Notes: generated by a model not told the origin, from the letters alone. Shown: positions 18,102 through 31,199, numbered from the stretch's first letter. The stretch: 32,000 nucleotides of DNA from an archaeon (GCA_028279805.1 JANQMZ010000007.1:510001-542000); one strand, 5' to 3'. Translations and numbers: made by a program.

Positions 18102-19331
18102 ATGGTGGGAAAGATTTCTATGACAAAAAATTCTAACATTTTTCAGGGAGAATTAAGCAAAAGCACGGTTTTTTTGAATAAAGATATTATTACGCCTCAT
18201 TATATGCCCAAAAAACTGCCTTTCAGGGAAAAACAAATAGAGGAAATGGTTTCATCTTTAAGCAATTCTTTAAAAAATCAGAAATCTGACAATTTGTTCA
18301 TTTATGGAAAAACAGGAACAGGGAAAACAAGCACAACAAGATTTGTTTTAAACCAGTTAAAAAATTTTGCAGAAGAACAAAAAGCTTCAATAGAAACAGT
18401 TTATGTTAATTGCAGGAATTATAACAGCAAATATAAAGTTTTAAGCAAAATTATTGCCAATTTTTACCCTGAAAAAGAATTCACAGGATTTTCAAGCAGT
18501 TTTGTTTACGAAAAAATGACAAATTTTGTGGAAGAAAACAACACACAGTTAATTATTGCACTGGATGAAATTGACAAACTAAAAGAATTAGATGACTTAA
18601 TTTATTCACTGACAAGAGCAAATGACGAATTAAACAAAGGAGGCATTGGTTTAATCGGAATAAGCAACCAGCTAACATTTAAAGACAAGCTTGACCCGAG
18701 AACAAAAAGTTCTTTGTGTGAAAAAGAAATGGTTTTCCCGCCATACAATGCTGAAGAAATCAGGGCAATTTTAAACGGAAGAATAAAAAAAGCATTCAAA
18801 CCTGAAACGGTTGAGGAATCCGCAATAAATCTTGCTTCAGCAATAGCTTCAAAAGAATCGGGAGATGCAAGAACTGCAGTAATGTTATTATTGAGAGCGG
18901 GAGAACAGGCTGATAAAAATAAAACAGAAAAAATTACAGACAAAGAAGTTCAGAAAGCAAGAAAAAAAGTTGAAGAGCAAATAATTTTTGACATGATATC
19001 CACATTACCGGAACAAGAACAACTTGTTTTGTATACAATAGCAAATTTAACAATTCACACAAAAGGAGTTAAAAGGCTTGGAAAAGAAAATGAAAAAGCA
19101 ATGCTTTTATCAGGGGAAATTTATGACGAATACAACAAAATGGCTAAAAATTTTGAAGAAAAACCGGTCAGCCAAAAATGGTTCGGGCAATATTTAACAG
19201 AATTAAACATGTACGGCCTGATAAACAGCACAATAAGTGGGAAAGGGCAGAGAGGAACAGCCAGAATAATACAGCTGGTTTTTGACCCTGTTCAGATAAA
19301 AAAAACAATTGAAAAAGAATTAAACCGTTAA
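18102..19331 (+). CDS. cdc6: Orc1/Cdc6 replication initiator (AAA+ with C-terminal winged helix)
   Basis: 409-aa ORF with Walker A IYGKTGTGKTS, Walker B IIALDEID and sensor region SGDARTA. The start is ambiguous between ATG 18102 and ATG 18120 (MTKNSNIF...). The latter has GGTGG 11 nt upstream and a TATA-like box about 25-34 nt upstream. Confidence 0.9.
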   Translation: MVGKISMTKNSNIFQGELSKSTVFLNKDIITPHYMPKKLPFREKQIEEMVSSLSNSLKNQKSDNLFIYGKTGTGKTSTTRFVLNQLKNFAEEQKASIETVYVNCRNYNSKYKVLSKIIANFYPEKEFTGFSSSFVYEKMTNFVEENNTQLIIALDEIDKLKELDDLIYSLTRANDELNKGGIGLIGISNQLTFKDKLDPRTKSSLCEKEMVFPPYNAEEIRAILNGRIKKAFKPETVEESAINLASAIASKESGDARTAVMLLLRAGEQADKNKTEKITDKEVQKARKKVEEQIIFDMISTLPEQEQLVLYTIANLTIHTKGVKRLGKENEKAMLLSGEIYDEYNKMAKNFEEKPVSQKWFGQYLTELNMYGLINSTISGKGQRGTARIIQLVFDPVQIKKTIEKELNR

Positions 19332-22300
19332 GCCCCGCAAAGCCATTCATCTTTATCAGAAGCCGAATCAGCTATACTGTTTATCAAAGCCTGCTTATTC
19401 CAGTAATAAATATAATCATCAGTTTCCTGTTCCTGAATTACACAAAGTTTGCCGTCAGAAATTTGGGTTAAAAGATTTTCAAGAGTTTGAACTTTGAATT
19501 CTTCAGAATCAAAACCAGGGTTACCGGAACATTCATTTTGAACTGAAACAAGGTCATCATGAGCTGCATAAAACACTGAAGCTGATTTCAATTCATCATT
19601 TTCTCTGCCGGTTACATTTTCAAAAGTAAGACCAAAACCTGTTGAAGCACATGAAAGGGTGCCAGGTTTTGAGTCAGGTTTGCCTGAAAATAATCCTGAA
19701 CCGTACAAGTCTTTGCATTTACTTTCCCCGCCGGTTGCCCCCAAAGCAGTCCAGTTCAAAGCATAATCGTTTTTGCCTTCAAAAGTTTCAGTTCCGTTTA
19801 TTATTAAATTGTAAAACATTTCCGCTTTCTCATTTTCCACTTTTGCTGTTCCAAGAACAGGCAAAGCTTTTGTCGGTGAAAATTCCATAACAGTTGAGGA
19901 ATCATCAATTCTCAAAACAACGCCTGAATCATCATAATTAAAATGATTCAAAGAATCATAAACTTTTGTAAAAACACTGCCCCTTGTACCGGAATCAACT
20001 TCAGCACGAACATCAGAACTTACTTCAACAATGTTTTCATTAACCCCGAAATTGAAAGCCAGACCATAACCTGCCCTTGAATCTCCAATTCCAAGTTCTC
20101 CGTCAAAAGGAATTTCATACAACGGATTTGCAGGTGCGCCTGCAATTTTTTGCATTTCAACAGTTATATTTGACACAGGTTCACCCTGAGAATCAAAAAA
20201 AGCATTATTATAATTTTGAACATTTAAAATAATTTTGTATTTGCCGGCGTCAAACGAATTGGGTTCAAATGAAAGTTTTTCGGAATCCAGCAAATATTTG
20301 TGCCATTTTTCATTATATGATTCATCAGATTTTAAGCCACGGTAAACAGCGTCAAAATCCTGCCTAAAATCATCTGAAACTGCATCTTTCATTAAAAATG
20401 CAGTGAAAGGCATTTCAATATCAGCTTCAGGCTGGCCATCCAGTAATTCAAGCCTGTTAAGCAATGCAATTGCAAACTGTGTTGAATCACAATATGAAAC
20501 ATTTTGCAATAAAGCATCTTCTGATAACTGCTGGCCACAATTGTTTGTTTTTGAAATAATGTCAGCAAACCCGATTTCATTATAATTCCATGAATAAAAC
20601 AGGTCAGGTTTTGCATCTTCCCCTGTAAAACCTGTTTGCCCGTTAGGCAAAGTGCATTCATCCTGTGTCACAGCTGTTTCTTCAACAAGCAGCTTAAAAT
20701 TCATGTACTCTGTTTTTTTAACAGCAGATGAAAAATGCAAAACATCTGAAACGGAATTTGAAATATTAAAATTTCCGCCCGCATCAACAAAACTATAATT
20801 AACAGTCAAACTTATATCAAAAGGTTCAGGACCAGAATTTTCACTGTAATCCGCAGACATTCTTATAATCATGGAATCCTGAGGCAAAACTTTGTTTGCT
20901 CCGTCCAGGTCAGGAAACTCACATTCTAATCCAAACTGGTCACAGTTATGGGAAACTGAATCAATTTGAACAGTTCCTTCGTTCAAATTTTCAGGGTTTA
21001 TTTTTTCCAGATTCCAGAAAGTCCAGACCAAAACTGTTTTATCGGTTGGATTTGGCAAAGGCACAACTTTTTTGCCCGGAGCAGTTAAAGCGGTTGTTCC
21101 CGGCAATCCAATTGTAATATTCTGAGAATCTTCATGCTGTTCTGCCGCTTTGTCATTAGCTGTAAGATTCACAGCGTAAACTCCTGCAGCATCGTAAACA
21201 TGGTCAACTGAAAACTCGTTATTTGCATTTAGTGTTAAAGAACCTGAATTTGTTCCGTCACCAAAATCGAGAACACATGAATCAAGTGAATTCCCTGAAA
21301 CAACACAGGCATTGGCTGAATCATTATCAGCATCATTACAGCTTCCCGTAAAAGTAACGGTTTCATTAACCTCAAATTCAGGCACCAAAAACTGGAACAA
21401 ATCGGCAACCGGCATGTTGTTTGGCGGGGTAACCAAAAGCTTTACAGTATCCTCAACAAAAGCATCAGATGAATCTTTTGATGTTAAAACAACATCATAT
21501 TCACATTCAGGAGAATCTGAAAAAGCATGGGTTGTTGTTGCATCACACTGTGTTCCATCAGTATTTAAGCATTCTGAAGACAACAATTCCTGGGTTGTTC
21601 CGTCACCAAAATCAATATTGCATGAAACCAAGTCCTTGTTAACAGTTTCAGAGCATTTGGCATTAAAAGTCACATCAGTGTCCGGTCTTACGGATGCCTG
21701 TTCATCCTGTTCCTGACCTGAAGCATCTGTTGCTTTCAAATCAGATTCCAAAATGTTTCCCTGTTTTTGTTTTATTGTAAAATTAACATGCTCTGTCCAG
21801 GTAAAAGAACCTGAATTTTCTGATGAATTTGAACTGCTGTGCTCTTTTGCAAATTCTAAAGATAAAGGATGTTCTGAGTCATCAGCAGGGTTTGCAAAGC
21901 TGAAAACATGTTCAAAATTTTTTCTTCCAAAACACAAATTGTGGCCATTAGGAGTTGTTAGTTCTGGTCCAGAGCAATCCCATTCCAGTTTACCCAGACC
22001 TGAATTGTTTCCGGAACTGTTTGCAACCTCGCTTGAATCAAGTTTTAATCTCAGCAAAGGGTCAGTTGTTTTCATTTCAGCTCCGACAATATCCGGAACA
22101 GAGTAAAGCTCCTCATTTGTCAAACCGGAACAAGCATTTTCACAAACTCCTGAAACATTTGAAGAATCGCAAGTGTTTTCACGGTCCAGCGGATCCGTTC
22201 CTCCAGCTGACGCTTTCCAGTAATCACTTTCTTCACTGTTGCACATAATATTGTTTTCCAATTTGAAGGATGTGTTTCCACTGCCACTGCTTTCAACACC

Positions 22301-23617
22301 ATAAAAAAAATCAAGAATTTTGTTATTTTGAATTTTCATATCAGGAATAGAATCGCCGTGAATAACGGTTATTCCGTGAGGAGAATCATCTGTTTGTTCC
22401 TGGTTAAACAAAACATTATCTTTAACTGTTGTAAAAGGAGCCCAAGCAGCAATTCCTTGTACCCTAAAAGGCCCTTTTAACAGATTGTTTTGAATAAAAT
22501 TTGTTTTATTTATCTCTGACTCTGATCCTGAAAATATTATTCCCCGTCCCATTTTTTCCCGCCAAAATACGTCATTGGACAAAATTGTATTATTGGAAAC
22601 TTCATTTCCATTCGCCCCGACATTTCCGGTGACATTTCCGGTGGACACGCGAATTCCTTCATATATTGCTCCTTCAATTTCGTTATTGTAAATTTTTGAA
22701 TCAAACACCTTACTATTAATACCATAACCAAAATCGCCCTTAATTGAACAATTTGTTACGGTTGCATTTTTCATTTTTTTGACAGCCAATGCGGTATTCT
22801 GAACATCATACACTAAACCGGTTAGAATTGAATTGCCCAGACAATCCAAATTTGTTGGTAAAAATTCATCTTCTTCTCTTACAAAAAAAGTTCCAGGGTC
22901 ATTAACAGGAGAAAAACGTTCTTTTTTTACGCTGACTACTCCACCATTTCTTTCAAAATCCTCTTCCCCGACTCCCAGTTGCAAAGAATCTCTATTTCCG
23001 GTAAAAAACCCAGTAGTGTCAAAATCTTTTACAAGATAAAAAGTTTTAGGCAGATAACTTACAGGAATATCAACTCCGAATTTTTGAACGTTGTCATGCT
23101 CATCCCTTACTTTTGAGTCCCCCCACTGCCAAGGATAAGAATGATCTGTTACATGTGAAAAAGGATCATATTTTTGACCGTCTTTGTCTTCAGCCGGATT
23201 TGTGAATTCATGAAGCTTTGAACAGTTCCCGGCACGGTCAGAACAATGCTGGTGCCAGCCCGAATATGTTACAATAATATCTCCAACAGCAATATCAGAA
23301 CCGTATAATTCCACAGTATTATCCCTTAGAGGAGAATAGGTTTGCTTGTAATCAATTTTTTCAACAACAGCTTTTGAACCGTTTAAAAGCTCAATTGTAT
23401 CCCCGGCATTTATTGTGCTATTATCAGAATCCTCAGAATCATAAACCCCTATTTCATTGCCTGCAGGATCATAAAATTTGATTAAATATGAAAATGTTCC
23501 CGTGGTTGTATCCTCCAAATATAATTCCTGCTGGTCTGCATAAATAAGCTTGGCGGAAACAAAAGAAAACATCATTGAAAAACATAAAACTATGAGCAAA
23601 AATTTTTTCACATTCAT
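19328..23617 (-). CDS. giant secreted protein: signal peptide, unknown N-domain, right-handed beta-helix repeats, two PKD-like domains, about 580-aa unknown C-terminal region
   Basis: 1429-aa ORF.
- Signal peptide MNVKKFLLIVLCFSMMFSFVSA/KL.
- Parallel beta-helix-type repeats (NATVTNCSIKG..., IYNNEIEG..., VSNNTILSN..., FIQNNLLKG..., VKDNVLFN..., IQNNKILD..., LENNIMCN).
- PKD cores CNIDFGDGTTQ and CVLDFGDGTNSG...VDHVYDAAGVYAVNLTAND.
- Many Cys residues and more than 20 N-x-S/T sequons.
- No C-terminal anchor (the protein ends DKDEWLCGA). Confidence 0.8.
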   Translation of the reverse strand: MNVKKFLLIVLCFSMMFSFVSAKLIYADQQELYLEDTTTGTFSYLIKFYDPAGNEIGVYDSEDSDNSTINAGDTIELLNGSKAVVEKIDYKQTYSPLRDNTVELYGSDIAVGDIIVTYSGWHQHCSDRAGNCSKLHEFTNPAEDKDGQKYDPFSHVTDHSYPWQWGDSKVRDEHDNVQKFGVDIPVSYLPKTFYLVKDFDTTGFFTGNRDSLQLGVGEEDFERNGGVVSVKKERFSPVNDPGTFFVREEDEFLPTNLDCLGNSILTGLVYDVQNTALAVKKMKNATVTNCSIKGDFGYGINSKVFDSKIYNNEIEGAIYEGIRVSTGNVTGNVGANGNEVSNNTILSNDVFWREKMGRGIIFSGSESEINKTNFIQNNLLKGPFRVQGIAAWAPFTTVKDNVLFNQEQTDDSPHGITVIHGDSIPDMKIQNNKILDFFYGVESSGSGNTSFKLENNIMCNSEESDYWKASAGGTDPLDRENTCDSSNVSGVCENACSGLTNEELYSVPDIVGAEMKTTDPLLRLKLDSSEVANSSGNNSGLGKLEWDCSGPELTTPNGHNLCFGRKNFEHVFSFANPADDSEHPLSLEFAKEHSSSNSSENSGSFTWTEHVNFTIKQKQGNILESDLKATDASGQEQDEQASVRPDTDVTFNAKCSETVNKDLVSCNIDFGDGTTQELLSSECLNTDGTQCDATTTHAFSDSPECEYDVVLTSKDSSDAFVEDTVKLLVTPPNNMPVADLFQFLVPEFEVNETVTFTGSCNDADNDSANACVVSGNSLDSCVLDFGDGTNSGSLTLNANNEFSVDHVYDAAGVYAVNLTANDKAAEQHEDSQNITIGLPGTTALTAPGKKVVPLPNPTDKTVLVWTFWNLEKINPENLNEGTVQIDSVSHNCDQFGLECEFPDLDGANKVLPQDSMIIRMSADYSENSGPEPFDISLTVNYSFVDAGGNFNISNSVSDVLHFSSAVKKTEYMNFKLLVEETAVTQDECTLPNGQTGFTGEDAKPDLFYSWNYNEIGFADIISKTNNCGQQLSEDALLQNVSYCDSTQFAIALLNRLELLDGQPEADIEMPFTAFLMKDAVSDDFRQDFDAVYRGLKSDESYNEKWHKYLLDSEKLSFEPNSFDAGKYKIILNVQNYNNAFFDSQGEPVSNITVEMQKIAGAPANPLYEIPFDGELGIGDSRAGYGLAFNFGVNENIVEVSSDVRAEVDSGTRGSVFTKVYDSLNHFNYDDSGVVLRIDDSSTVMEFSPTKALPVLGTAKVENEKAEMFYNLIINGTETFEGKNDYALNWTALGATGGESKCKDLYGSGLFSGKPDSKPGTLSCASTGFGLTFENVTGRENDELKSASVFYAAHDDLVSVQNECSGNPGFDSEEFKVQTLENLLTQISDGKLCVIQEQETDDYIYYWNKQALINSIADSASDKDEWLCGA
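21250..21613 (-). repeat. internal domain duplication: 19-nt exact repeat marking two tandem PKD cores
   Basis: ttgttccgtcaccaaaatc occurs at 21250-21268 and again at 21595-21613 on the plus strand, encoding DFGDGT on the minus strand. The copies are 345 nt (115 codons) apart. Confidence 0.7.
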
Positions 23618-24138
23618 TTCATTTCACCTTTTTTTGTAGGATGCTTGCCTGTAATCGCTTTTAACTTTTTGTCTTTGCCTCTGCCAAAAACAAACACAAT
23701 TAGAACAATTAAAACAGCTAAAATTATTAAAATGTTTAAAGGGGATAAAAGGTTTGGTGTTGTTGTGGCCATGCCACTGTTTTCACCATGCCTTGCTAAA
23801 TTAAAATAAATTTTGGGATTCTGAAAGCCTGTTTTTTTGTTGTTAAAAATTAAAGCATATTCTCCCGGTTCAAGGGAAATGCTTTGAGAAAAACTTGTCG
23901 TGTTTTCAATGCTTTGTTCAAAAACCTGGTTATTTTCAGAATCCAGAATAAAAAAAGCTGCATTAATTGGTTCATTGTTCTGGGATGAAACACTTAAATT
24001 AAAATTTCCGGAAAAACTGCCTGAAACATTTAAACCGTTATCCTGAACAGTGAAAGGTAACACAGCATCAAAAGATTCCGCATTAACAGCTGAAAAAAGC
24101 ATGAAAAATGCCAAAATTGTGAAAATTTTTTTATTCAA
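23614..24138 (-). CDS. small bitopic surface protein (signal peptide + beta-rich ectodomain + Thr-rich linker + C-terminal TM helix + basic tail)
   Basis: 174-aa ORF beginning at TTG 24138 (TTGA overlap with the upstream stop, GGTGAGTGAT SD 6 nt upstream). The resulting N-terminus (M)NKKIFTILAFFMLFSAVNA/ES is a textbook signal peptide. The C-terminus is ATTTPNLLSPLNILIILAVLIVLIVFVFGRGKDKK.... Confidence 0.7.
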   Translation of the reverse strand: MNKKIFTILAFFMLFSAVNAESFDAVLPFTVQDNGLNVSGSFSGNFNLSVSSQNNEPINAAFFILDSENNQVFEQSIENTTSFSQSISLEPGEYALIFNNKKTGFQNPKIYFNLARHGENSGMATTTPNLLSPLNILIILAVLIVLIVFVFGRGKDKKLKAITGKHPTKKGEMK

Positions 24139-27100
24139 CCTGAATCACTCACCGTATCAGTAAAAATGCTGTAAAAATAACTTGTTGCCCTTACATCTTC
24201 ATTTGTCATTGTAAAATTGTACACCTGAGTGTTTCTTGACTCATCAAAAGGATAAGAACCTATTAAAGAACGGTTTTCAAGCCATACAACAATGTTTTGT
24301 TCAGACGCTTGCGCTGTAAAAGAAACAGATTTAACATCACTTGACTGCAAATTGTTTTGGGTTAAATAATCATCAAATTGTTTAAAAGCATCAAAAGGAG
24401 CAAGTTCCCTTGTCTGCCCCCTGAACAAGCCTTGTTGAGGATAATTTTCAGTATCTTCATCAACAGAATCATCTTTTAACACTACAATCATTTTAACAGT
24501 TGTGTCAAAAAACAAGCTTTCCTCAGTGTCAATTTCAGGCGTCAAATCGGTTATTGAAATCTTTGATGGTTCGCTTGTCGAAGCTTCAGCTGGCTCATCC
24601 GAATCAGTAAAGCACTTGTTTGTAAAAAAACCTGTTTCCCTTTTTTCTCCCAGTTCCAGGTTTATCCTGTAACTGTCCATTGAAAAACAATTATTTGGAT
24701 CTGTAACAAAAGCTTCAATGTCTTTTGCCAAAACCGGTGTTTCATTTTGAGCAAATCTTCCAAAAATTTTCACGGGAAACAATCCAGTTGTAGCAAGAGT
24801 GTTTGGCTGCAAATCAGATGAAACTGTAACAGTTTTTGATTCTGCATTGTTTAAAGAAAATTCTTCTCCAACATCAGGACTTGTAACCAAATCACTGCCT
24901 ATTGACAAAAATATTTCCTGAGAACATGATGAAAAAATTATAAAGTTTTCAGAGCCCTGCCTTTCAACTGAAACAGTTTCCTTGTCATAAGTCAGACAAC
25001 TGAACAAAGTGTTTTCAGATGAAGATGACTGAACGTCAAGAGTTTCATTATAAGTTCTGAAGCCCGATTTTGTTGCTCTGAATAAAATTTGCTGACCATA
25101 AGCACCCAAATTTGTTAACTCATTTTCAGGAATTGTAAACTCTCCCGCATCATTGCTTTCATGATTCCCTGTTATCTGGGTTGAATCCAGAGCAAACAAT
25201 GCAATCGTTGCACCTTCAACAGGTTCTGATTGTTCATCTGTAATTGTTCCTGAAATAAGAGGCTGGTTAACCGGTTCAACGGTTTCAGGCAGACCATTAA
25301 CAATTAATTCTTCAGAAGAAAGTGTTTTGAAAAAAATTGAAAACCTGTCATTTACTGAATTTCCCGAATCAAAATCAAATTTTAATTCAACATTGTCTTT
25401 TTCCTCAGAACCCTTAATGTTAAAAATGCCTGAATGAAAATTTTCATGGTTAATGGTTTCATTATTAAAAACAGTGAATTTTCCTGTCGGAACATTTTCC
25501 GGCGGGTTTAGCCAGATTGAAAAAATTTTGCTTGAAACACTTGAAGCATTTTCTTCAGTTTTTAAAGAAGCATTTGAAAAATCCTGTTCAGAACAATTAA
25601 ACGCAGAATAGCCTATTTGGTAAGGCTGTTTTACCGCAACTGAGGAAATGTTTCTTGAGCCTGTTAACAAAATGTTAGGGTTTTTGTCAGAATTTTGAGG
25701 CAATTCCTTTCCGGGATTTATTGAAAACTGCCATAACAAATCTTTTGATGAGGGAAAACACAAAACTTTTCCCATTTCAAAAACTTCAAGATGTGTTCCG
25801 GTTGAAGGGTCAAAAAGGGTGTTGCCTGAAACACTTGTAACGGCTGCATGCCTTAACTGTAATTTTTCAGTGGCATTTTTTTCAATTTCCAGTTCAGCAA
25901 TAATTGGAACAATTACAGGTCCTGAAATTAAATTAAAATTAATCAAGGATGATTTGGAGTTTTCACCCGGTGTTGTGTTTTTGCATCCCTGTTCATCTGA
26001 TGTAAAAAACTGGTCGGATGAATTAAAACAATTTGAAAGGGAAATGTCATCGGATAAAGCTGACTGAACATTTTTTAACGCAATTTTATAACCGGAATTT
26101 GGAATTTTGTTCTGAGATTCCAAGCCGACACGAATGTGCTGAATTAAATCAGTGTAAACGGAATCTTTTTGCATTATTAACAAAAATTTTGCAAAAACTT
26201 TTTGGTCCTGGTTTAATGATTCAATTATTGGAACCTGCCTCTGGCAATCCGAATCAAAGCATAAATATTCAAACCAGCTTAACAAATCAGAGTCAGGCAA
26301 ATCATCAAGGTCTTTTTCTGCCCACAATTCTATTGTGATTTTTTGAGTGTTTTTTTTCAAAACCGTTACAAGAGTGTTGGAATAAGATGAAATATATTCA
26401 GAAGCCGAAGCCTTAACATAAAAATTTTCACCAGCCTTCAAGTCAATTGAAGTGCATAACCCTTTTGAATCAGTTGTACATGAATCTTTTTCCGTGTCCG
26501 TTTCCGATTCAAAAAAAGTTACGGTTGCTCCGGAAACCGGTTCAGCTGTTTTATGGTCAACAATTAATGCTTCAATAAATCCTGTGCCTTTTTCCATTCT
26601 GATCTCAAAAGATTCTGTTTCACCCGCAGAAATTTCTTTATCATCTGACACTCCTTCCTCATTTCCTTTTTTTGCATTAACAAAATAATCCCCTTGAGGC
26701 AAAAACACATCGGAAAAAGAATAGGTTCCGTCTTCAAGCGTTAATTCACCCAAAGGATTGCTTATAACAACGCCAAAACTTGCTTCATGCAAAAAAACCA
26801 GTGCATTTGAAGCTGTTTCACCGGATTCTGAAAAAACGGTAACATCAGCCAAACCATAATTTTGATTCACTTTGTCAACTTTTTCAATTTCAATTTGTTC
26901 CGGGTTTTCAGGAATTGTGTCAAAAACCGGAAGTTTTTGAACTTTTAGAAAATAATCTTCAGCAGAAACAACAGCAATAATATCCTCATTTTGAATGTTT
27001 CCAACCGCAAAAGCTTTTGAGCCTTTTAAAGCAGAAAAACTTTTCAAAAAAACAGTGTTTTTGAAAAGACGCACATTTGAGGCAATGTTTTGTTTTGATT

Positions 27101-28142
27101 CAGAGTCAATTACCTCAAAAAAAACACGTTTTCCTTTTTCAATCGTTACAGTTATGTCAGTCCTTAAACCTGCATTAACCTGTACTCCCTCAGATTCGCC
27201 AAAAGCACCGGCATCAGTCGAAGCTGTTACAATATATGAACCGGGAGGAACATTTTCAAATAATTTGTCACCGGACTGGGTTGACTGTGTTTCCTGAAAA
27301 GGAGTTCCTGTAACAGAATCTGACACTGTTATGTCGGCGGATTGCACCGGAAGATTCTGAGAGTCAACAACTTTTACGTACAAAGAACCTGTTAAATTTT
27401 CAACATTTTTTGACAAATTAATAAAAGTTTCTTTTCTGGTTATTTTTTTTGAAGCTGAATCAAAACCGGAAGCTGAGGCTGTTACAGATAAATCCGAACA
27501 ATTTGAAACTGAAAAATTAAAAATTCCGTCAGCTCTTGTTAAAGGACTTGGAGATTCGCCCGAAGAACATGTAAAAGTTAATGTTACGGATGTTTCTCCC
27601 GGCCAGTTTCTTCCGTTTTCAACAACTCTCACAGTGCATCCGTCTGAACCGCAGACATCTGACAGCATAAAAGCTCCGGATGTTAGGGTTATTTCCTGAA
27701 CATTGTTTGCGGATAACAATAACAGCCTGTTAAACATCGGAAAATTTTCTTTTTCAACAGAAACATCTGCTTCAATTTCCGATTCGGGGATTGAAACAGA
27801 AACAAAACCAAAAGAATCTGTTGTTAAGTCGTGCTGCGTGTCATTGAAAAAAATTTTTACATTTGCTCCTTCCACAGGATTGCCGTCAGAGTCAACAACT
27901 TTTAATGCTGCTGTAAAACCAAATCCTGCAAAATTAAAAAAATAAAAAGCCAGGCCTGTTACAAGCACTGATAAGCCAAAAAACAATAAAAGGCTTGGAA
28001 CTATTCTGTCAATGGGGTCAATTATTTCATAAACAGGAACATATTGGTTTATTTTATCCAGAAAATCATACCATTTGTCTTCAATTTTGTAATAAAAATC
28101 CTTAATTTTATCAAAGGGACCTGATGTTGATTCATCTGCCAT
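24135..28142 (-). CDS. giant N-terminally anchored surface protein with repeated carboxypeptidase-regulatory-like (CarboxypepD_reg/Big-type) beta-sandwich modules
   Basis: 1335-aa ORF.
- An acidic/aromatic cytoplasmic head (FYYKIEDKWYDFLDKINQYVPVYEIIDPIDRI) with no signal peptide, then one TM helix (SLLLFFGLSVLVTGLAFYFF).
- Repeated modules of the type LKVVDSDGNPVEGANVKIF, LYVKVVDSQNLPVQSADITV...PPGSYIVTAS, IEALIVDHKTAEPVSGATVTFFE...GENFYVKASA and ISGTITDEQSEPVEGATIALFA.
- More than 15 N-x-S/T sequons. Confidence 0.8.
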   Translation of the reverse strand: MADESTSGPFDKIKDFYYKIEDKWYDFLDKINQYVPVYEIIDPIDRIVPSLLLFFGLSVLVTGLAFYFFNFAGFGFTAALKVVDSDGNPVEGANVKIFFNDTQHDLTTDSFGFVSVSIPESEIEADVSVEKENFPMFNRLLLLSANNVQEITLTSGAFMLSDVCGSDGCTVRVVENGRNWPGETSVTLTFTCSSGESPSPLTRADGIFNFSVSNCSDLSVTASASGFDSASKKITRKETFINLSKNVENLTGSLYVKVVDSQNLPVQSADITVSDSVTGTPFQETQSTQSGDKLFENVPPGSYIVTASTDAGAFGESEGVQVNAGLRTDITVTIEKGKRVFFEVIDSESKQNIASNVRLFKNTVFLKSFSALKGSKAFAVGNIQNEDIIAVVSAEDYFLKVQKLPVFDTIPENPEQIEIEKVDKVNQNYGLADVTVFSESGETASNALVFLHEASFGVVISNPLGELTLEDGTYSFSDVFLPQGDYFVNAKKGNEEGVSDDKEISAGETESFEIRMEKGTGFIEALIVDHKTAEPVSGATVTFFESETDTEKDSCTTDSKGLCTSIDLKAGENFYVKASASEYISSYSNTLVTVLKKNTQKITIELWAEKDLDDLPDSDLLSWFEYLCFDSDCQRQVPIIESLNQDQKVFAKFLLIMQKDSVYTDLIQHIRVGLESQNKIPNSGYKIALKNVQSALSDDISLSNCFNSSDQFFTSDEQGCKNTTPGENSKSSLINFNLISGPVIVPIIAELEIEKNATEKLQLRHAAVTSVSGNTLFDPSTGTHLEVFEMGKVLCFPSSKDLLWQFSINPGKELPQNSDKNPNILLTGSRNISSVAVKQPYQIGYSAFNCSEQDFSNASLKTEENASSVSSKIFSIWLNPPENVPTGKFTVFNNETINHENFHSGIFNIKGSEEKDNVELKFDFDSGNSVNDRFSIFFKTLSSEELIVNGLPETVEPVNQPLISGTITDEQSEPVEGATIALFALDSTQITGNHESNDAGEFTIPENELTNLGAYGQQILFRATKSGFRTYNETLDVQSSSSENTLFSCLTYDKETVSVERQGSENFIIFSSCSQEIFLSIGSDLVTSPDVGEEFSLNNAESKTVTVSSDLQPNTLATTGLFPVKIFGRFAQNETPVLAKDIEAFVTDPNNCFSMDSYRINLELGEKRETGFFTNKCFTDSDEPAEASTSEPSKISITDLTPEIDTEESLFFDTTVKMIVVLKDDSVDEDTENYPQQGLFRGQTRELAPFDAFKQFDDYLTQNNLQSSDVKSVSFTAQASEQNIVVWLENRSLIGSYPFDESRNTQVYNFTMTNEDVRATSYFYSIFTDTVSDSG

Positions 28143-28153
28143 AAAAAACGCCC

Positions 28154-28171
28154 AAAATTAATAACTTTATT
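28154..28171 (-). promoter_or_regulatory. candidate TATA-like box for the giant-protein operon
   Basis: On the minus strand aataaagttattaatttt lies 12-29 nt upstream of the ATG at 28142. No SD box lies between it and the ATG, which fits a leaderless or very short-leader mRNA. Confidence 0.3.
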
Positions 28172-28195
28172 GAATAGATTAGTGAATTTGTTTAT

Positions 28196-28216
28196 TAAAA
28201 AGTTTGCCTTTGAGGC
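28196..28216 (-). terminator. possible hel308 terminator: short GCCT/AGGC hairpin followed by a T5 run
   Basis: Minus strand, 15 nt after the hel308 stop: GCCTCAAAGGC aaac TTTTT. The stem is only 4 bp. Oligo-T is the main archaeal termination signal. Confidence 0.3.
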
Positions 28217-28230
28217 ATTAAAACAGCTTA

Positions 28231-30659: not shown

Positions 30660-31199
30660 TTAACTCAGCCTTGGGTCCCCGGAATAATCTGGGGCAATTT
30701 TACATCTTCCGGTTTCAATGTCTTCTGAGTTTAATAATCTGTCAAGTTTTCCGTCACAAATGAAAGTGCTTCTGTCAACTCCGCATAAGCTGAATGTTTT
30801 ATCTGCGCTGGGACTATAATAATATTTGAATGGGAGAATTTCTTTTGGAAAAAATTTAATTCCCTCTGCTTCATCAATGTAAACAATTTCCAAATCAGGA
30901 AAATCTTTTTGAATTCTGCTTGCAGAACCGGGGTCATGTAATCTGTCATAAGCATCATCAATATTTTCCTGTAGTTCAGCGGACAAAGGAAGTTGTTCAG
31001 GTTCTTGAACAATTTCTTCTTTAACAGATTGTTCTTCAACAACAGGTTCTGATAATGTAGTTTCCGGTTCTTCATTCACAGGCAAATTTTGAGATAAAGA
31101 AGATTTTTGATCAGTTTGCTGAATTTGAGTTGTTGTGCACCCAGTTAAAAAAATTAAAATTGCTATTCCAAATAAAAAGCTGTTATTCATCGTGTACAT
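30660..31199 (-). CDS. putative secreted lipoprotein with an acidic linker and a Cys-containing C-terminal domain
   Basis: 179-aa ORF. The signal sequence ends in the lipobox-like LTGC (FGIAILIFLTGCTTTQ). A Glu/Pro/Gln-rich low-complexity linker follows, then a C-terminal domain with three Cys residues. Confidence 0.6.
   Translation of the reverse strand: MYTMNNSFLFGIAILIFLTGCTTTQIQQTDQKSSLSQNLPVNEEPETTLSEPVVEEQSVKEEIVQEPEQLPLSAELQENIDDAYDRLHDPGSASRIQKDFPDLEIVYIDEAEGIKFFPKEILPFKYYYSPSADKTFSLCGVDRSTFICDGKLDRLLNSEDIETGRCKIAPDYSGDPRLS

Follow-up and report, generated by a model that had tools for sequence, protein, structure and literature searches.

Three adjacent genes on the minus strand of a 32,000-nucleotide stretch of archaeal DNA (GCA_028279805.1, JANQMZ010000007.1:510001-542000; G+C content about 34%), called the window below, encode the surface proteins P1, P2 and P3. 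The explanation we prefer, with a probability of roughly 0.6, is that this triad is the fission form of a giant, fibrillar adhesin-like surface protein of Iainarchaeota, whose conserved stalk, variable head and C-terminal domain (P3C) are rebuilt from separate parts. Judging from the sequences, the usual member of the family is a single chain of 1800-2700 amino acids (aa) that carries an N-terminal motif (NT), a transmembrane (TM) helix, a beta-sandwich stalk, a poorly conserved middle and P3C. By the same comparison, P1 would be the signal-anchored stalk, and P3 the variable head plus P3C with an acquired Sec signal peptide. The original prediction for this locus, a novel three-component apparatus, thus gives way to a fission state of a multi-copy, single giant-protein family that occupies a conserved chromosomal slot. 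To our knowledge, no member of the Iainarchaeota (Diapherotrites) has been cultured, and next to nothing has been learned about their cell surface.

The genes and their predicted parts are as follows.
24135-28142, minus strand: P1, 1335 aa, ATG start
23614-24138, minus strand: P2, 174 aa, TTG start
19328-23617, minus strand: P3, 1429 aa, ATG start
about 28154-28172, minus strand: candidate TATA region, an AT-rich stretch 5' of P1 read from the sequence
27993-28127, minus strand: NT motif, P1 residues ~6-50, YYxxEDKWYxxLDKIxxxxPVYxIIDPIDxxVPS
27924-27992, minus strand: TM helix or signal anchor, P1 residues ~51-73, from hydropathy; kept in all homologues
26283-27923, minus strand: prealbumin-like beta-sandwich stalk, P1 residues ~74-620, from Pfam
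24408-26282, minus strand: beta-rich region with paired cysteines, P1 residues ~621-1245, with CarbopepD_reg_2 at 963-1045
24141-24407, minus strand: tail domain at the fission point, P1 residues 1246-1334, from a local hidden Markov model (HMM) of tails
23552-23617, minus strand: P3 signal peptide, residues 1-22, ending FVSA before K
22178-22840, minus strand: probable right-handed beta-helix, P3 residues ~260-480, about 7 PbH1-like turns (xxIxNNxI)
21113-21376, minus strand: PKD domain, P3 residues ~748-835, from Pfam
19331-20758, minus strand: P3C domain, P3 residues 954-1429, ~470 aa, cysteine-containing

P1 and P3 correspond to parts of one chain in many relatives

The relation between the triad and the single-chain proteins is seen most directly in alignments. 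In the single 2236-aa protein P0003, residues 5-1203 align with P1 of the window and residues 1724-2211 with P3 residues 966-1415. P0005 and P0008 show the same arrangement: their first ~1200 residues match P1, and their last ~480 match the C-terminus of P3. More generally, almost the whole of P1 can be aligned, at 23-33% identity, with the P1-like parts of split loci and with the first ~1200 aa of fused proteins of 2200 aa; in the fused giants, its equivalent is the N-terminal two-thirds. On this sequence evidence, proteins of the P0003 type are Rosetta-stone fusions of P1 and P3. The series of fused and split forms argues that P1 and P3 act as one unit and gives precise domain boundaries. 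A physical association of P1 with P3 is strongly implied because both are one polypeptide in many relatives. In L003 (9432-13840), the gene for the fused protein P0003 precedes a Peptidase_A24 (prepilin-peptidase-like) gene, after which come HxsD and two radical-SAM genes.

A scan with the P1 alignment, covering one genome per GTDB species, returned 143 relatives, nearly all labelled Candidatus Iainarchaeum or Diapherotrites. A few relatives are labelled Micrarchaeota, and by this census the family appears confined almost to Iainarchaeota, with a few Micrarchaeota-labelled metagenome-assembled genomes (MAGs) besides. Local HMMs for NT and P3C identified 104 NT-bearing open reading frames (ORFs) in 79 non-redundant loci. 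These comprise 46 fused ORFs (1803-2739 aa, median 2399), 32 complete ORFs with NT only, and 26 that are cut by contig ends. Because the fused ORFs are spread over 36 loci, they are unlikely to be assembly chimeras. For most of the complete NT-only ORFs, the next gene encodes P3C (two-gene form) or is a middle gene followed by a P3C gene (three-gene form). Two or three family members stand in tandem at 19 of the 79 loci. The window carries both hallmarks on separate proteins, with P2 between them, rather than on one polypeptide as in the commonest form; it is split like 31 other complete NT-only ORFs.

Three-gene loci also occur in other genomes. In a Diapherotrites MAG (L002) and in L004/L005, tightly packed genes encode, in order, a P1-like protein, a 571-610-aa protein that has a signal peptide and a C-terminal TM helix, and a 1122-1204-aa secreted protein whose C-terminus matches P3 966-1429. 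Counted besides the window and the locus L084, at least 10 genomes show this tightly packed order, with middle proteins of 571-612 aa that carry both a signal peptide and a TM helix. In a rough neighbour-joining tree of P3C, the window and locus L084 are sisters and the split forms are scattered over several clades, which suggests that fission or fusion has occurred more than once. Our literature searches returned no description of this NT...P3C family.

Two of the loci carry unexpected labels. The Iainarchaeota family is present in MAGs titled 'Thaumarchaeota archaeon' (L006, JAFCCH010000004.1) and 'Chloroflexi bacterium' (L007, JAFCCG010000021.1). Both also carry an archaeal Hel308 that is 46-51% identical to that of the window, and L007 has Cdc6, SepF and PolD as well (about 53%). 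Judged by these genes, the two MAGs are probably mis-binned or mislabelled.

A conserved chromosomal slot

The giant surface genes recur at one chromosomal position, Hel308 - X - Cdc6 - SepF - PolD DP2. In L068 and L073 a single fused gene (2079 and 2064 aa, respectively) fills X, whose place is taken by two genes in L016, L020, L023 and L037; the window, L084, L007 and L062 have three there. A genome usually has several copies of the family, one of which is in the slot beside Cdc6, SepF and PolD. The closest relative of P3, P0079, led to the triad of L084, whose products have 1378, 173 and 1229 aa and whose genes retain both the TTGA and the ATGA overlap. Housekeeping neighbours of the two triads are 53-58% identical, compared with ~33% for P1, P2 and the alignable part of P3. 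The occurrence of the same gene order, overlaps and topologies in independent genomes indicates that the arrangement is not due to chance. This bears out the original description of a closely coupled operon for surface proteins, here in a DPANN archaeon, and its three-gene order is syntenic in L084, L007, L062 and further loci.

The surrounding order is also conserved. SecD/SecF - NOG1-like GTPase - PolD DP1 - DP2 - SepF - Cdc6 - surface gene(s) - Hel308 (window 8622-30321) is shared by many Iainarchaeota MAGs (L084, L007, L016, L020, L023, L037, L068 and L073), and the surface locus thus adjoins replication and division genes.

Gene layout and translation signals

The three ORFs cover 19328-28142 without an intergenic base. 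The P1 stop and the P2 start overlap in TTGA (24135-24138), the P2 stop and the P3 start overlap in ATGA (23614-23617), and GGTGA-type boxes (GGTGAGTGAT and AAGGTGA) sit directly 5' of the two internal starts. All of these features were part of the original prediction, and the coordinates, the overlaps and both Shine-Dalgarno (SD) boxes were reproduced. The AT-rich box that it placed upstream of 28142 is likewise present, and hydropathy agrees with the complementary topologies it assigned to the three products.

No SD sequence precedes the P1 ATG in the inspected sequence upstream of 28142. The missing SD and the upstream AT-rich box fit a leaderless first gene, and P1 probably has no leader or a short one. 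Leaderless first genes combined with SD-dependent, coupled translation of downstream genes are familiar in archaeal operons. A hairpin and T-run behind the Hel308 stop (28205-28217) suggest that the operon has its own promoter. A sigma-70 promoter scan was set aside as irrelevant to an archaeon. At the other end, P3 converges with Cdc6/Orc1 (18102-19331, plus strand), and the 3' ends of the two genes overlap by 4 nucleotides (19328-19331), which leaves no intergenic space for a terminator on either strand.

In the public annotation, P2 begins at an ATG located 12 codons downstream of the TTG, giving 162 aa (L001 9516-10004). A start at this ATG costs the signal peptide its n-region and half of its h-region. 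The TTG is the better supported start, and the public call is probably misannotated, because only the TTG gives a proper signal peptide and because the L084 ortholog shares the TTGA overlap.

The non-ATG start of P2, which the gene finder placed elsewhere, is one of two observations that could point to an artefact or to decay: the split might reflect a single gene that is frameshifted or pseudogenised, or three unrelated neighbours whose products do not associate. The other is that in L030, L045 and L070 the second part of a two-gene split lacks a signal peptide, so that these splits may be frameshifts. For the window, we consider this explanation highly improbable. Its internal starts are preceded by SD boxes, and P2 and P3 have proper signal peptides. 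P2 is intercalated between the two parts, has homologues of its own and is not a piece of the fused protein. L084 keeps the architecture and the 4-nucleotide overlaps although its identity to the window's triad is only 33%. Finally, P1 and P3 were found identical in two independent sources, an 853-kb NCBI contig and the Logan assembly of SRR20820740.

The anchored stalk protein P1

Hydropathy gives P1 a hydrophilic N-terminus of ~50 residues, a single TM helix (51-69) and no cleavable-type signal. P1 is predicted to be oriented N-in, because extracellular-type domains come after the TM helix, and the NT motif is presumed to be cytoplasmic. NT has 15 invariant alignment positions, all 15 of which are present in P1, and its conservation marks it as the likely family-defining element. 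The local NT HMM detects P1 with E=1e-32; its seed contained the window sequence, and the independent support comes from BLAST and tblastn. No Pfam or NCBIfam model matches the motif. In P0005, a lysine-rich extension of ~165 residues (1-165) lies ahead of NT.

The stalk is built from beta-sandwiches of a recognizable type. CarboxypepD_reg (PF13620) matches P1 in 6 stretches (1.7e-36, 124.9 bits vs a gathering threshold of 32.3), SpaA (PF17802) also scores above its threshold (1.9e-10, 41.2 bits vs 23.1), and Big_1/MG4-like Pfam models match the same region. Outside its CarbopepD_reg_2 domain, the following region (~621-1245) has no family match. From ~621 to about 1180-1200 this region is conserved in fused and split homologues, and from there to ~1245 it aligns only with the P1 parts of split forms and with the L084 ortholog.

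The last ~90 residues form the tail domain, which the local tail HMM finds in the window with E=1.5e-20. Nearly all split P1 parts end with this domain, which is internal in fused proteins at ~1420-1490 and in most relatives finishes with a hydrophobic-x-hydrophobic-x-D-Y(V)-like strand. Since the tail domain also occurs inside fused proteins, the cut between P1 and the following gene falls at a domain boundary.

Both large proteins have the composition of surface proteins. Each has an isoelectric point of 4.3, and P1 and P3 contain 16 and 29 cysteines, respectively. The density of N-glycosylation sequons is 1.3-1.75 per 100 aa in these two proteins and 0.3-0.9 in the housekeeping neighbours, a difference of 2-4 times.

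The conserved C-terminal domain P3C

P3C always stands at the extreme C-terminus and carries the motifs YCDxTQF, PFYYLPFDG, RxGYG and FWWN in our alignments. BLASTP links it to many loci with E values of 1e-30 to 1e-43. An exhaustive profile search returned 762 representative clusters (50% identity) at E<=1e-3, of which 460 were at <=1e-30. Index-based searches found far less, since a word-index search with whole P3 matched only itself and the 34-sequence P3C alignment matched nothing; these outcomes reflect a limit of the index. Among 148 newly retrieved top P3C matches (P0010-P0157), 77 also have NT and are 1949-3100 aa long.

An AlphaFold 2 (AF2) model of P3C from a 48-sequence alignment has a mixed alpha/beta fold (predicted local distance difference test, pLDDT, 83.9; predicted template-modelling score 0.83). 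None of 48 surveyed members has a Pfam match in this domain, and the P3C profile has no sequence relative in the PDB. An invariant Y-C-D-x-T-Q-F at P3 1043-1048 (window ~20474-20491) lies at the N-terminus of a predicted helix. A thioester reading of its C-D-x-T-Q was dropped because the spacing is unlike CxEQ, no TED/A2M match was found, and there are enough conserved cysteines for disulfides.

The variable head of P3

P3 starts with the signal peptide MNVKKFLLIVLCFSMMFSFVSA, cleaved before K, and has no other TM segment by hydropathy, as expected of a secreted protein without an anchor. A hydrophobic N-terminus is present in 18 of 27 P3C-bearing parts of split loci after removal of duplicate loci. 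The few split P3C parts that have no signal-like segment may be frameshifts.

Between the signal peptide and P3C lies a variable region. Residues ~91-850 cannot be aligned even with the L084 ortholog. When all the relatives collected were searched by phmmer with P3 1-240, 230-520 and 500-760, PKD-like pieces were the sole homologues of the head. The recognizable head modules vary between loci, with three PKD domains and FlgD_ig in L016 and NosD/Beta_helix in L084. An unalignable head between a conserved stalk and P3C is probably the site of ligand specificity; candidate ligands are a host envelope, a glycan or the cell's own S-layer.

The original prediction named three kinds of generic extracellular module, and two of these stand. 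The CarboxypepD_reg beta-sandwiches of P1 score above the Pfam gathering threshold, and so does the PKD domain of P3 (PF00801 / PF18911; PKD_4 8.4e-09 and PKD 6.5e-08; 35.8 vs 27 and 32.9 vs 23.5). A second PKD-like unit is probably present at ~645-745, and a phmmer search with P3 500-760 matches a PKD-like ORF in L008. The third module, a beta-helix, was not confirmed by direct tests, as described below. A large part of the triad had been said to match nothing nameable, and much of it indeed stays unannotatable. Searches of NCBIfam, PHROGs and PDB sequences added no domain; those of the PDB with P1, P3 and P3 236-525 gave nothing meaningful.

For the beta-helix, P3 260-480 contains 8 PbH1-like motifs, compared with 1.0+-1.0 in 2000 shuffles, at a spacing of 23-31 aa. 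The L084 ortholog matches Pfam Beta_helix (1.8e-12) and NosD (4.4e-11) and, weakly, Pect-lyase_RHGA_epim. Motif periodicity and the Pfam match of the ortholog make a beta-helix in P3 of the window probable. A single-sequence AF2 model of P3 236-505 (pLDDT 33.9) is unusable for the fold.

These observations, together with the PKD domains, which are frequent companions of glycanases, are what would be expected if the triad were a surface-displayed, polymer-degrading complex in which the P3 beta-helix is a lyase or hydrolase, or a tailspike-like depolymerase, held by P1 and P2. This possibility is improbable in our estimation. No catalytic family was detected in Pfam, NCBIfam, PHROGs or the PDB, and the failed AF2 model offers the fold no support. 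A beta-helix module occurs in 1 of 48 surveyed P3C proteins; others have three PKD domains, FlgD_ig or nothing recognizable. This distribution suggests an exchangeable accessory module and not the function of the family. Likewise, right-handed parallel beta-helix proteins (PF13229/PF05048) are matched by the L084 head, whereas P3 of the window, despite its about 7 PbH1-like turns, is below every Pfam threshold and has neither catalytic signatures nor a phage relationship. The lyase, hydrolase or tailspike relationship that had been raised originally was not found, as no PHROGs family appeared at E<=0.1 and Foldseek searches of the PDB and BFVD with P3C gave no such match (BFVD threshold E<=1e-3).

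P2 and the middle proteins

Hydropathy gives P2 a signal peptide (MNKKIFTILAFFMLFSAVNA, cleaved before ES; residues 1-20), a C-terminal TM helix (134-152) and a basic tail. P2 is therefore a type-I membrane protein, and its ectodomain is a beta-sandwich domain (~29-120). Its L084 ortholog (173 aa, 33% identity, E=5e-20) is embedded in identical types of 4-nucleotide overlap. A profile of the 571-612-aa middle proteins matches P2 weakly (E=2.6e-4) and is collinear with the TM helix. Profile-profile alignment of 3 small P2 sequences with 12 middle proteins (hhalign) is stronger, with 97.5% probability and E=6.3e-12, and pairs P2 29-119 with the membrane-proximal domain of the 560-610-aa proteins. 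This pairing identifies P2 as a truncated middle protein that retains the last ectodomain, the TM helix and the tail. L015 has a third small middle gene, which runs off the end of its contig. When metagenomes were scanned with the small-P2 alignment, the sole match, in a high-GC contig, was irrelevant.

The middle proteins have an Ig/arrestin-like beta-sandwich, a Cys-rich juxtamembrane region, a signal peptide and a TM helix, and they are not a fragment of the fused proteins. No characterised family matched them, and their profile gave nothing meaningful against PDB sequences. In architecture, P2 is similar to p24 proteins, which also combine a signal peptide, a beta-sandwich, a TM helix and a short basic tail. 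The EMP24/GOLD model (PF01105) gives P2 20.5 bits (E=5.5e-4), below the Pfam cut-off of 25.9, and gives the L084 ortholog 14.1 bits.

A full-length homologue of the middle proteins (559 aa, E=1.8e-149) is encoded by a solitary gene in L011 (3296-4975, minus), on the opposite strand and upstream of Hel308 and a fused gene for 2255 aa. Split loci are thus not the only places where the accessory protein occurs.

Other features of the window

Other genes of the window encode Kae1, ValRS, Bud32, S15, S3Ae, SecDF, PolD DP1/DP2, SepF, Cdc6 and Hel308. A 179-aa ORF at 30660-31199 (minus strand) begins with MYTMNNSFLFGIAILIFLTGC, a lipobox-like signal, and may encode an archaeal lipoprotein; no family match is recorded for it in L001. 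Scans of the window for tRNA and Rfam families gave no matches.

Comparison with known surface systems

The closest general likeness is to bacterial fibrillar adhesins (SpaA/Sdr/Bap-type), which likewise combine a stalk of beta-sandwich repeats with a single anchor and with terminal domains that are not repeats. Further shared traits are the acidic composition typical of extracellular proteins, the presence of several paralogues and the variability of the binding region. In contrast to these proteins, the NT...P3C family is archaeal and is anchored by an N-terminal TM helix after a conserved ~45-aa motif, not by LPXTG/sortase, a lipobox or PGF-CTERM. It further differs in its C-terminal domain without a known fold, in its repeated splits into 2-3 genes and in its type-I accessory protein. 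The fibrillar-adhesin-like architecture and the fast-evolving head together suggest a role in adhesion or glycan recognition. Partner-cell attachment and polymer degradation had been proposed originally, and nothing in the sequence analysis shows either of them.

The SlaA/SlaB operon of Sulfolobales encodes a large, secreted, anchorless glycoprotein together with a smaller protein that has a signal peptide, a beta-sandwich and a C-terminal TM helix, and the two genes are co-transcribed. P3, which is secreted, anchorless, acidic and sequon-rich, and the middle proteins mimic this architecture. The triad might accordingly be a structural envelope or S-layer-type system, a basic wall component in which P3 forms a canopy or lattice on membrane stalks made of P2 and/or P1. 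One copy at a conserved core-genome position across the phylum would suit such a role, and strong conservation of P3C is expected of a self-assembly domain. Even so, we consider this explanation unlikely. The likeness to SlaA/SlaB is architectural only: no sequence or fold similarity was detected, including in the PDB search (which covers SlaA) and the Foldseek search with P3C. The S-layer models TIGR01564/TIGR01567 are absent at E<=1 in NCBIfam. The triad has an additional N-anchored stalk protein of 1335 aa, and most relatives make its parts as a single chain. Tandem paralogues (at least two members at 19 of 79 loci) and a hypervariable middle are atypical of lattice proteins. Moreover, a different, MSTP-like protein of 1039 aa has been predicted to form the S-layer of Iainarchaeota (preprint 10.1101/2024.05.28.596244). 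Overall, no characterised S-layer or adhesin family was matched by Pfam, NCBIfam, PDB sequence or Foldseek searches (the last with P3C), in agreement with the original view that the proteins belong to no such family.

Other large surface proteins of DPANN archaea form a third point of comparison. SPEARE of Nanohaloarchaeum is reportedly a large surface protein proposed to act in host contact. Large Cys-rich surface proteins have also been proposed for host contact in Ca. Huberarchaeum, among others (PMC6792436), although the correspondence is one of general category. Compared by description only, these proteins and the triad share a DPANN lineage, very large size, extracellular location, membrane anchoring and cysteine content. 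The triad family differs in its own NT and P3C hallmarks and in its core slot. No protease, nuclease or haemolysin-type domains were detected in the family.

Proposed assembly and implications

Several findings weigh against a rebuilt adhesin-like fibre. P3C is the most conserved part, which is unusual for a ligand-binding tip, and it may bind the cell's own envelope or mediate self-assembly. A Foldseek search of the PDB and BFVD with its model gave nothing at E<=1e-3 (template-modelling scores about 0.1). A core syntenic slot across the phylum also fits a structural envelope role. Beta_helix (PF13229) and NosD (PF05048) have no match at E<=1 in P3 of the window or in its first 639 aa. In addition, two-gene and fused forms lack the middle gene, so whatever it does is not essential in cis.

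If the triad is nevertheless a split adhesin-like protein, its production can be pictured as follows. One mRNA from a promoter in the AT-rich stretch upstream of 28142 would carry all three genes. P1 would be translated from a leaderless start, and the TTGA and ATGA overlaps with their SD boxes would couple the translation of P2 and P3. P1 would be inserted N-in, and P2 and P3 would be exported via Sec. Exported P3 might then dock on the C-terminal tail domain of P1, with P2 as a membrane partner that possibly helps or tethers this docking. Docking would rebuild a long, acidic, sequon-rich fibre with the stalk, head and C-terminal domain that relatives make as a single chain. The fibre would project from the cell and present the fast-evolving, ligand-binding head.

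The family is well delimited, widespread in its phylum, open to experiment and uncharacterised, but it does not amount to a new kind of machine. Giant surface proteins with Ig repeats, or of an adhesin-like type, are known. What sets the family apart from them is the NT motif, P3C and the repeated fission into coupled operons. Neither hallmark domain, NT or P3C, is covered by a Pfam or NCBIfam model, and the PDB holds no structural analogue of P3C.

A more far-reaching idea, which we regard as doubtful, is that the family forms the main contact organelle of Iainarchaeota, a modular fibre in which P3C and the stalk flank an exchangeable head (beta-helix, PKD) and which diversifies by module exchange. 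If this is true, then the NT motif could couple the stalk to an intracellular partner, and fissions accompanied by gain of a signal peptide and an accessory protein would let heads swap or re-dock. The system would then recognize a host or a substrate, and P3C would represent an unseen self-assembly or envelope-binding fold.

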